DNA of 20,000 bases from Hydrurus foetidus (GCA_900617105.1 UYFQ01000732.1:174244-194243), one strand, 5' to 3'; positions 2,740 to 5,902 are shown, counted from the first letter of the stretch. Made by a program: numbers and translations. The notes: generated by a model not told the origin, from the letters alone.

Positions 2740-2794
2740 GCCTAACGAGTAAGGTTAGATCGTGCGAAGCCACGATCTGAACCGATTGTTGGAC
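2740..2794 (-). other. attC-like recombination site (55 bp)
   Basis: Minus strand reads GTCCAAC-AATCG-GTTCAGAT-CGTG-GCTTCG-CACG-ATCTAAC-CTTACTC-GTTAGGC: R'' RYYYAAC, 5-nt spacer, 8-nt L'' with one unpaired base against a 7-nt L', central stem-loop, R' GTTRRRY. The right spacer is 7 nt, one longer than usual. Confidence 0.8.
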
Positions 2795-2991
2795 GAGCCC
2801 GGTCAGACCTACCTCTTCTGAAATTATCTTTTACGCCACATCGCCCGCGAAGGACCTTGGAACAAGCCAAGCCCGACGGTTGCGACGATTCAAGCCATCA
2901 TTGCAATGGTGCGTTGCCCAGTTGTGCTGATTTTGGCCGAGCCCAGCCACAGCACCCACTGGGCACTGGTGCGCTGGCGTTGATTCCCGAT

Positions 2992-4122
2992 TTAGCTGGC
3001 CGCAAAGTCCTTGCCGTTGCACGGCACCGGTGGCGCAATCACCGGCAAGATGCGTCGTCGCACGATAGCCATGACAGCGCCACAGCAGCGGCAAAGCAGC
3101 TTGGGTCGTTCAGTTGGAGTCGCTGATGCTGGTACTGATGAGGCGCAAGCCTTGCCACACGTCTTGAACACCAGCAAACGCAGCAACGCAATCAAGCGCT
3201 TGCTGTTGGGGTGCAAAAATCCATAATTGCGTGCACGCCGAAAACCCTTGGGCAACACGTGCTGCAACACCAGCCGTAAAAACTCCACCCCACTGACGGT
3301 GCGCTGCGCTGGCTTCTTGGTTTTGCTGTCCCGCCAGCGGTAGGTAACCTGCCCGTTCTCGCAGCGCAAAATATCCTTCTCCTGAATCACCCCCCGGTAC
3401 AAGTAGCGCCCCAAGTAGACCAAGGCCTTTTGACCATCACCCACAGACTTGCAATCCACCACCCACTTATCGGGCACGTCGGGCGGCAACGGCAACCCCA
3501 ACTCGCCCACGGCGGCCAGAAACTTGGCCCTAAACACCTTGGCCAGTGCCTTGTGGTTGAACAAATAGCCGTCCCCTTTGGAAGTCTTTCGCAATGAGCG
3601 CCACAAACCCTTATCGGCATCCAGTGCCGCCGCAGGCATGGCCACATGCACATGCGGGTGAAAATCCAGTTTGCGTGAATGCGTGTGCAGCACCGCCACT
3701 GCACCTGGGCTACCCTGCAACTGCCTGTGGTTCTGGCTGAACGTGCGCAGCGTCTCCCAGGCGCAATCCATCAAGGCGGCATAGAGCAAGCGCTGATGCT
3801 GCCAAACCAGGGTTCGCAGCTCAGCAGGCACGGTGAACGTGATCAGGAAATAGCTTCCCGGCACCAACGCCTGTGTCTGGCGTTCAATCCAGCGTTGGCT
3901 CTCAAAATGCTGACAGTGCGGGCAATTGCGGTGTCCACAGGAATGCGGCACCACGCGCTGCTCACCACAGTCGCCACAATGGGCCAACATTCCTGGGCCC
4001 AGGACAGAGCGACAGTTCTTCATGGCATTCAAGGCCTGGCGCTGACTGGGCAGCGCGTTGGTGCCGTGGTGCGTGAGGTAATCCAAACCGAAGCGCTCAA
4101 TGAGGGTGGAGAGCGTGATCAT
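2992..4122 (-). CDS. IS91-family (Y2/HUH rolling-circle) transposase, 376 aa
   Basis: N-terminal Zn-binding region 'CRS...HCGDCG...[11 protein letters not shown]'; 'YFLITFTVP'; HUH 'LHTH...FHPHVH'; tyrosine motif 'YLGRYLYR'; '[18 protein letters not shown]'. ATG at 4122 overlaps the recombinase stop (ATGA). Confidence 0.93.
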
Positions 4123-5050
4123 TTGACACCTGCCCAATCGATATTGAAGCGGTCCATCAAGGCCTCGATGCGAACACTGGCCTGATCGTTGGTGTGGCTG
4201 GTCAGATGGGTGTAGCGGGCGGTGGTCAGAATGCTGTAGTGGCCCAGAATCTTCTGCACCTCCAGCAGATCGACCCCGGACTCGATCAAATGTGTTGCAT
4301 AGCTGTGGCGAAGGCTGTGCGGGGTGATCTTTTTTTTAGCCCGCAGGAGACGGCCACTTGATGCAAAGCCTTTTGCACACCCCCACGGTCCAGCGGGGTA
4401 CGTGCGCTCTTGGCACCGGCCAAGCCGCCATGGCGGTTGGGGAACAAAAGCTCAGGATTGTGGTGGGTTTGCCAGAATCGGCGCAAGACATCCAAAGTGG
4501 CCTGTGGCAGCGGGACAAAGCGGTCCCGATTGCCTTTGGAGTCGCGGATATGCACGCGGTGGCGCACCGCATCGATGTCCGCCACAGTCAAAGCCAGTCC
4601 TTCGGAGAGGCGCAAGCCCAGGCTGTACAGCGTGAAATAGAACACCCGGTAGCTCAGGGTGTGGGTGGCCGCGAATATCGCTTGCGCCTCTTCGACAGTG
4701 ACGATATCGGGCAGGCGTGAAACCTTGGGTGGTTTGATGAAGTTGGGCATGCTCCAGGGCTTGCGCAGTACATGCAGGGTATAGAACTTGAAACCGTAAG
4801 GATCGATCTTGACCGCGCTCCAAGAATGCGAGGCAACCAGATCGTGGAAGTAGTCGGTCAGCTGCGCTGGCGACAGGTTGTCGATTTGGTGATCGAAGTA
4901 GTCCCCCATGCGTCGGATGGTGCGGGCGTAGGCGTCGATGGTCTTGGGCTGCAGGCCCTTGAGTTTGAGGTGCTTGAGGTGACTGCGGTACGTGCTGCTA
5001 AAGGGCTCAGCAAACGCGCTCGGATCGAACCCGCCGGGGTAAGTGAACAT
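4119..5050 (-). CDS. Tyrosine recombinase (XerD/IntI-like), full length (310 aa) only via a -1 frameshift at 4337-4330
   Basis: ATG at 5050 with GGAG upstream. Frame 0 has the N-terminal domain, 'GLRLSE' (Arg) and 'SKGNRDR' (Lys) and stops at 4286. The -1 frame continues [43 protein letters not shown]...WAGVK* to 4119, supplying HxxR, LGH and the catalytic Tyr. Confidence 0.9.
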
Positions 5051-5139
5051 GGGCAAACTCCAGGTAAGTTGAAGGTCAACATGCACCACAATGGAGGCAT
5101 GTGCCTACAGCTTACGAATTCACCGAATGGGGTTCCACT

Positions 5140-5161
5140 CCGCGTAGCGGCTTCGTCCAAC
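5140..5161 (-). other. Element 5' terminus: GTTRRRY core site (GTTGGAC) with subterminal hairpin CCGC-GTA-GCGG
   Basis: Plus strand CCGCGTAGCGGCTTCGTCCAAC. The hairpin at 5140-5150 lies upstream of the genes, where IS91-family terIS palindromes are found. Confidence 0.65.
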
Positions 5162-5239
5162 AGCCCTACTGGCGGGTAATCCATTGAAAAGAAGGGCTTA
5201 GACCCCTAAAATCAAGCGATCTACCCTCAGGAGAACGCT

Positions 5240-5434
5240 ATGGACGTTAGCAAAGCCAAGCCCGCACAAGTGCAACAGGCCCAAGCGCTCAAGCGCACCG
5301 ATGAGTCCCGGCAAACCCAACAGCGCGAGACCCAGGCCAAGGCACAAGCCCCCAAAAAGGCGGAAGAGCCCAAGCGCCCCGTGGTGAATGCCCAGGGGCA
5401 GACCACAGGCCGACTGCTCAACGTCAGCGCCTGA
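5240..5434 (+). CDS. Small Gln/Lys/Ala-rich hypothetical protein (64 aa)
   Basis: AGGAG RBS before ATG; GC-rich third codon positions; C-terminal motif shared with the next gene. Confidence 0.8.
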   Translation: MDVSKAKPAQVQQAQALKRTDESRQTQQRETQAKAQAPKKAEEPKRPVVNAQGQTTGRLLNVSA

Positions 5435-5470: not shown

Positions 5471-5902
5471 ATGGTTGCCATCACCGCCACCAACAGCGCA
5501 ACGCCTTCTTTGCAGGCGTCGCTGAGCATGGTGCACCTGGAGCAGGCCAAGCGGGAGGCGGACACGGCGGAGGCCAGGGCCCAAGACCTGCGCGCGCAGG
5601 CGAACGACGCCGAACGTGAAGCGCAAGGCCGCAAAGACAATGTGCGCGAGCTGAGCAGTAGCGCCAGCAAGCCGACCGACACGCCCACCAGCAGCACCTA
5701 CAGCGCACCGTCAATGTCTACGTCCACGGCCAATTTCATCGCCGTGCCGAGTGCCACCCAGGAGTTTTTGGTACGCATGTACAAGGCCACCAGCCCGCAG
5801 TTCGCTGCCAGTGGCAACGCCCTCAAGGACGACAGCGAGGCCGCCCCGACCATCAACACGCTGGGGCAGGCCACGGGGCGCATCGTCAACCTCAGCGTCT
5901 GA
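5471..5902 (+). CDS. Hypothetical protein (143 aa): coiled-coil N half, Ser/Thr linker, shared C-terminal motif
   Basis: 'LEQAKREADTAEARAQDLRAQANDAEREAQ' has coiled-coil character; ends PTINTLGQATGRIVNLSV. Start codon uncertain (weak RBS). Confidence 0.75.
   Translation: MVAITATNSATPSLQASLSMVHLEQAKREADTAEARAQDLRAQANDAEREAQGRKDNVRELSSSASKPTDTPTSSTYSAPSMSTSTANFIAVPSATQEFLVRMYKATSPQFAASGNALKDDSEAAPTINTLGQATGRIVNLSV

Follow-up and report, generated by a model that had tools for sequence, protein, structure and literature searches.

The window analysed here, a stretch of 20,000 nucleotides from Hydrurus foetidus (GCA_900617105.1, UYFQ01000732.1:174244-194243), carries on its minus strand a precisely bounded IS91-related element that fails two defining features of the IS91 family and two of integrons. 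Its surroundings are chromosomal, with a two-component pair on one side and gdh and nuo-like genes on the other (named from translations). No integron array is present in the 20-kb window around the element, the 25 longest inverted repeats of the window include no terminal inverted repeats, an Rfam search of the window gave no real match, and neither Pfam nor Rfam matched a reverse transcriptase or a ribozyme there. The ends that a first-pass annotation had placed at two G/TT points, together with the 2415-bp circle drawn between them, all hold: GTTGGAC lies at 5161-5155, GTCCAAC at 2794-2788 and GTTAGGC at 2746-2740, and DNA likeness to relatives sets in at 5161-5162 and stops at about 2740-2745. 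The parts of the element and its flank are as follows.

2746..5160 (-): the element, 2415 bp between two G/TT points; relatives with both ends span 2249-2458 bp
5155..5161 (-): left core G/TTGGAC, the R' of the circle junction; GGAC positioned like the IS91/IS1294 terIS tetranucleotide
5140..5150 (-): sub-terminal palindrome CCGC-TAC-GCGG, terIS-like, 3 nt inward of the tetranucleotide
4286..5050 (-): zero-frame part of the recombinase, 254 aa; has the SAM_4 domain and the first catalytic Arg plus Lys, lacks H-x-x-R/H/Y
4329..4339 (-): shift site CTA-AAA-AAA-AG, conserved; A8 at 4337-4330
4119..4331 (-): -1-frame part of the recombinase, 70 aa; contains the catalytic Tyr besides HSLRH and LGH; fusion of 310 aa predicted
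2992..4122 (-): IS91-family Y2 HUH transposase, 376 aa; CxxC 49/67, HPHVH 155, YLGRY 236
2817..2830 (-): oriIS-core-like internal motif, a variable 12-33 nt inward of the right-end hairpin
2795..2800 (-): GGGCTC extension, pairing with the left end in the circle (fold)
2740..2794 (-): attC-like site, 55 nt; R'' 2794-2788, L'' 2782-2775, L' 2760-2754, R' 2746-2740
5162..5212 (+): target flank, intergenic and not attC-like

The attC-like site has an extra base at 2779 in L'', a 5-nt spacer between R'' and L'', a short stem-loop, and 7 nt between L' and R'; the R' bases 2745-2740 differ from target to target. On the left, a sigma-70-like promoter of the next host ORF (5184-5212) starts 23 nt beyond the element end, and two small ORFs (5240-5434 and 5471-5902) have no Pfam match, share a C-terminal motif of about INxxGQxTGRxxNxS and are kept beside gdh in several related genomes. 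Beside the right end, the motif TGGAAGCATA occurs three times in intergenic DNA at 2523-2710 (spacing 141 and 27) and could mark regulator boxes, a short intergenic hairpin at 2703-2719 could be a terminator, and a 31-codon ORF (2650-2745), too short to weigh, terminates at the target TAA.

Two enzymes and a conserved frame split

Both enzymes of the first-pass annotation, a tyrosine recombinase and an IS91 HUH transposase, are confirmed by Pfam and NCBIfam; the recombinase is not a single ORF, its catalytic half lying in the -1 frame. The recombinase has Phage_int_SAM_4 and Phage_integrase domains (Pfam/NCBIfam), and its catalytic set (R, K, H-x-x-R, H, Y) is complete only across a -1 shift, with H-x-x-R, His and Tyr encoded beyond the A8 run. 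The -1 frame at an A7 or A8 run recurs in 38 of 44 distinct contexts, the other six comprising four that are in frame (gammaproteobacterial), one shifted the opposite way on an A9 run and one not classed. The codon preceding the A-run ends in TA in 33 of 34 cases, CTA and TTA together accounting for 44 of 816 other Leu codons, and the catalytic His and Tyr are kept in all 41 distinct C-parts. The -1 frame of the recombinase stops in overlap with the transposase start (ATGA). A sequencing error is out as an explanation of the frame break, which is conserved in relatives, the shift site with its A-run being unchanged in sequencing runs X1 and X2 (two runs, one study). No downstream RNA stimulator of the shift was found (mean z +1.2 over 40 sequences), and because no conserved downstream structure was found, the slippage at the A-run may be transcriptional.

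Compared with four IntI sequences, the recombinase lacks the I2 insertion (about 28 residues), which in IntI docks the extra-helical bases of attC (PMC7790495), and it branches apart from these four in a tree with long branches and a root placed for drawing only. It also fails the IntI model (74 vs 265 bits); the best solved-structure matches of one in-frame relative are XerA and XerD, and a phage search returned distant integrases only. The transposase contains Zn_Tnp_IS91 and Y2_Tnp domains, scores 364.7 bits on NF033538 (cut-off 125) and has intact HPHVH and YLGRY motifs, the full HUH motif set being present in 56 of 75 HUH-bearing frames.

In the IS91 family, terIS is a tetranucleotide with a sub-terminal palindrome at the upstream end, and the targets are CTTG, GTTC and GTCC (PMC13181058). 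The left end of the element family is laid out in the same way, as G(G/A)AC, 3 nt and a GCCGC stem; of the ends used for comparison, that of L194 reads CGAG, 3 nt and a stem, and those of L189-L191 were likewise compared. The element boundary, however, lies 2-3 nt further out than the terIS layout has it. In the left palindrome the loop varies and the stem is kept, a stem that the search pattern itself demands. Of 60 distinct right ends, 58 contain an oriIS-like core, against 1.9% for a shuffled null; it is internal there, the hairpin and the variable 12-33 nt separating it from the end, whereas canonical IS91-family ends hold the ori core at a fixed 4 nt. GTCC stands 5' of the right-end AAC in 2 of 65 junctions and GTTC in none of the 65.

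The attC-like end across the element family

Relatives were gathered with two queries. In species genomes the transposase brought in 58 loci out of 101 candidate stretches, and in metagenomes the recombinase brought in 32 out of 437; six plasmid records were added to these 90 fetched loci. The family is widespread, its transposases are 39 to 89% identical among the relatives compared, and the plasmid records label the same gene pair as a site-specific integrase and an IS91 transposase.

The attC-like reading of the right end was upheld by a purpose-built covariance model of eight host attC sites, none from the element family (three further candidates, out of 11, aligned poorly and were left out). 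Minus-strand 2740-2794 is its best and sole significant match in the 20 kb (21.2 bits, E about 0.002), a score that is weak relative to those of the best host attC sites. The hairpin also travels with the element, as had been anticipated: across 31 aligned right ends 99.1% of cells are paired, 8 of 11 L-stem pairs carry two-sided changes (0 of 500 shuffles, kinship ignored; slid controls about 30% paired), and CGGGCT is invariant in all 31. The hairpin is under structural selection. Furthermore, the better R''/R' pairing predicted for the circle was found when 30 distinct copies complete at both ends were compared: 26 of them match R'' to the left end at 7 of 7 positions and four at 6 of 7, with a matched change in both partners in three of the 30, whereas R'' and the integrated R' pair at 3-6 of 7 positions in every one. 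The computed circle junction correspondingly folds on the bottom strand at -20.1 kcal/mol (z -4.6), against -11.2 kcal/mol (z -1.2) for the integrated right end (2-mer shuffles in both cases).

The end-to-end junction that had been predicted occurs in natural DNA, an exact right-end/left-end joint being present at L064 and L082. A free circle is out for L064, which is a tandem of two distinct copies with an overlap 91% alike, and the L082 junction is indistinguishable from a tandem. No circle or empty-site joint appeared among the joints listed for contigs of eight sequencing runs, contigs being prone to drop rare forms, and no empty allele of the window site was found in 144 genomes of the nearest genus, whose flanks match at 65-73% and in coding parts only. 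There are signs of the proposed autonomy, two genomes having multiple copies and no intact IntI found: in the draft genome G049, 17 left ends agree over 40 nt and IntI is represented by fragments only, while the complete chromosome G001 has the element at three places, none of its genes passing the IntI cut-off. IntI over the cut-off was found in four of seven genomes tested, G001 and G049 being among the remainder.

Several further arrangements were observed among the copies. In the samples of runs X1 and X2, a right-end variant of window 2743-2803 with a different inner sequence occurs at about five times chromosomal depth, and a left end (window 5094-5161) occurs with another flank; these extra end copies are possibly other or non-autonomous copies. 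At L059 and L023, two copies lie in a single array, in the same orientation and with one cassette-sized stretch between them. The element of L122, which sits in an inverted attC-like repeat, is immediately preceded upstream by a gene for a group II intron reverse transcriptase (1-1600). On a Shewanella plasmid (L141, 3001-3253), all that is left of an L124-like element is its terminal 253 bp (95% alike), which stops at the G/TT point within a cassette-like region. Short duplications of L'-spacer-GTT at the right junctions of L008 and L022 suggest repeated or slipped joining. Distant recombinase-IS91 pairs (L125, L126, L127 and L193) have, by inspection, end complementarity of their own, and their right ends contain an ori-like core; L126 has A/TT instead of G/TT, and L127 and L193 may sit forward ahead of a cassette gene.

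Targets and orientation of insertion

G precedes TT at all 96 distinct left junctions caught by the search pattern, a count outside which the A/TT junction of L024 falls, and GTT is found at 62 of 64 right junctions. By the covariance model, a host attC lies at 21 of 53 distinct left junctions (18 at E<=0.01), always antiparallel and in one register, the match reaching 6 nt into the element. A further 25 host attC matches in the loci, five of them training sites, are antiparallel too; the sole forward match in the loci is the element's own end at L064, and the model found no forward insertion into host attC in the 53 left junctions. Adding a hand-made attC scorer brings the union to 25 of 53 (null about 1.3%), but this scorer miscalls near-ties, such as L073, and the counts given here are based on the covariance model. 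The family also reaches class 1 integrons, on an E. coli IncC plasmid: comparison of L124 with the empty L140 places 2336 bp in the R'' of the aadA1 attC, with TTGTT common to both junctions, no base lost and no duplication. At L174 and L187 (G049:C287), one element lies backwards in the R'' of another member's own hairpin.

About half of the targets, including that of the window, are without attC. The window target is out as a hidden attC (fold z -0.3 and -1.4, no covariance match) and has one of four half-site bases. Among 14 non-attC targets of G049 (three attC-like sites of 17 omitted), the pattern T-12/G-10/A-9, in a register fixed beforehand from a separate junction set, gave 23 matches against 11.7 expected (p=0.00035), whereas eight slid registers gave p>=0.35; G-10 taken alone, at 6 of 14, is not enriched. 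A recombinase dimer, and not a tetranucleotide, would be expected to leave such a footprint. Two proposals are not supported by these observations: that the element behaves as one cassette of an array, and that it is probably moved by a host IntI, an option named in the first-pass annotation. The relatives lie antiparallel to cassette arrays in R'', about half of the targets show no attC, the window target is not an attC and the window holds no array.

Mechanism and comparison with known systems

Judging from sequence comparison, we give roughly even credence to a model with two steps, copy-out of a single-strand circle by the HUH enzyme and its insertion at G/TT sites by the recombinase that the element itself encodes. 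The HUH enzyme would bind the internal oriIS-like core, nick in the right-end AAC and release the bottom strand in circular form, stopping at the terIS-like left end; because GTT/AAC is common to both ends, any cut within it would yield the identical circle. The circle junction would then adopt an attC fold whose R box is complete, the recombinase would exchange one strand with a double-stranded target consisting of two boxes 5 bp apart, and replication would resolve the junction. The opposite strand of a host attC, across its R''-L'' half, would offer the best target, with weaker look-alikes such as the window site also used, and it is because this half serves as a two-box target on the opposite strand that insertion would be backward. 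Slippage at the A-run may in turn ration active recombinase and, through coupling, transposase.

Since ends and target share GTT/AAC, the junctions alone cannot name the enzyme, and other features have to be weighed. The conserved attC-shaped junction, the invariant G/TT, the second half-site at hairpin-free targets and a ter tetranucleotide that is not copied point to the recombinase as the probable agent of insertion, while the retained ter/ori signals, intact catalytic residues and many copies per genome point to the HUH enzyme as the probable maker of the intermediate. The missing I2 is the main difficulty for this model, since it leaves unexplained how the hairpin is read and how a second exchange is avoided; it is not fatal, given the precedent of CTX phage and XerCD, where a single strand is exchanged with a double strand without I2 (PMC3442271). 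Also against the model are the window target with its one matching half-site base, the variable distance of the core, and the presence of IntI in four of the seven genomes.

The alternatives assign the same parts to other roles. A canonical IS91 rolling circle, in which the HUH enzyme both excises and inserts at YAAC targets with a preference for attC hairpins as single-stranded targets, would leave the recombinase an accessory that resolves tandem or dimer circles or helps terIS recognition like Orf121. It would account for the terIS-like left end, the oriIS-like core and the overlap of recombinase stop and tnpA start, as with orf121; a bottom-strand intermediate without target duplication matches IS91 (PMC13181058), and a single 5'-truncated copy (L018), which sits in an inverted attC-like site and begins at an internal TTGGAC within tnpA, resembles early termination. 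We nevertheless consider it unlikely, as it leaves unexplained the attC-shaped end with its extra-helical base, the complementarity of left end and R'', and the base preferences 9-12 nt from the cut at hairpin-free targets, and the catalytic His and Tyr of the recombinase are invariably kept. Rather unlikely, in our assessment, is the reverse division of labour, in which the recombinase excises and inserts and the HUH enzyme is a replication initiator on the excised circle, giving many single-stranded circles. Here the circle junction would be the first place to unite GTCC, hairpin and oriIS-like core, in keeping with the internal position of the core, with the near-confinement of GTCC 5' of the right-end AAC to the junction form, and with the existence of tandem copies such as CTX phage needs (PMC3442271); but the integrated left junction is not an attC and would be a poor excision site, IntI itself excises weakly from attI x attC (PMC8876359), and a genome with 17 copies suggests that donor copies stay in place.

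That a host IntI or XerCD inserts the folded circle, making the element an ordinary cassette or a Xer hijacker, appears improbable. The right end does score as attC, IntI is present in more than half of the genomes tested, and ISShvi3 has been interpreted as a cassette (PMC9229058); IntI, however, inserts cassettes forward via the bottom strand (PMC8876359), an orientation absent by the model from the 53 junctions, the element has spread where no intact IntI was found in the genome, and its targets are scattered rather than a single dif-type site. Chance, or an attC passively carried, could be suggested by the modest score of the hairpin under the host-attC model, but with position and structure constant and compensatory changes across such divergent transposases, this origin is scarcely credible.

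The gene pair itself is already catalogued; its ends, targeting and frameshift were not found described in the literature searched. ISfinder lists recombinase-bearing IS91 elements, among which we take ISSod25, ISAzo26, ISSde12 and ISMno23 to belong. The search, outside whose scope ISfinder, TnCentral and most subscription papers lay, found no paper that describes the element ends, an IS91 element entering attC sites backwards, or the frame split. ISWz1 is called an IS91-family member (PMC11322121), and attC calls have been made at or after ISCR28 (PMC12772301); the available text of PMC9345347 and PMC11322121 contains nothing on element ends, and the main text of two frameshift surveys (PMC3711429; PMC5009743) no integrase or recombinase match.

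Should the model with HUH copy-out and recombinase paste-in be true, a catalogued but unexplained gene pair would use a transposition pathway undescribed for insertion sequences, and a natural I2-less recombinase with an attC-like substrate would make the origin of integron recombination, for which intermediates are lacking (PMC7790495), open to testing. A slightly less than even likelihood is attached to the broader proposal of a self-contained system, in which a HUH enzyme produces the single-stranded circle and a recombinase without I2, encoded by the same element, integrates its attC-like fold into double-stranded two-box sites, which would link rolling-circle insertion sequences, Xer-exploiting phages and integrons and provide a model for the origin of attC and IntI. 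On the practical level, annotation is at risk from a hairpin mistakable for a cassette end and a frame-split recombinase mistakable for a pseudogene.

Among known systems, the IS91 family (IS91, IS801, IS1294, IS1294b) shares with the element a Y2 HUH transposase, the absence of terminal inverted repeats and target duplication, an upstream ter-like tetranucleotide with palindrome, a downstream ori-like core, and an upstream ORF whose stop overlaps the tnpA start. Unlike in that family, the upstream ORF encodes a tyrosine recombinase, the ori-like core is separated from the end by an attC-like hairpin, the target is G/TT with a second half-site instead of CTTG, GTTC or GTCC, and the oriIS-like core is neither 4 nt from the end nor abutting a target tetranucleotide. 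ISShvi3 lies adjacent to an attC and was read as a new cassette structure, no IS interrupting an attC being reported in the available text (PMC9229058); that description sets it apart from the present element, whose hairpin is its own end and whose relatives interrupt host attC.

Programmed -1 frameshifting of the IS1/IS3 type also joins a DNA-binding part to a catalytic part at an A-rich shift site; the difference is that the shift here affects a tyrosine recombinase and that no conserved downstream structure was found. Integron cassettes resemble the element in the R''-5-L''...L'-7-R' hairpin with its extra base, in the G/TT crossover and in an R box completed in the circle, but the element carries its own enzymes and lies backwards at R'' and at many non-integron sites, and its recombinase, unlike IntI, lacks I2 and fails the IntI model. 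Group IIC-attC introns land in the attC R'' (TTGT/T) in the orientation opposite to cassettes (PMC7923331); the element shares this landing, its L124 target reading TTGTT, yet it is a DNA element without reverse transcriptase or ribozyme. Under the preferred model, finally, CTX phage and other Xer-exploiting elements would offer a likeness in a rolling-circle single strand, a folded site and one strand exchange into a double-stranded site, whereas the element differs from them in having its own recombinase, many dispersed targets and no phage genes.
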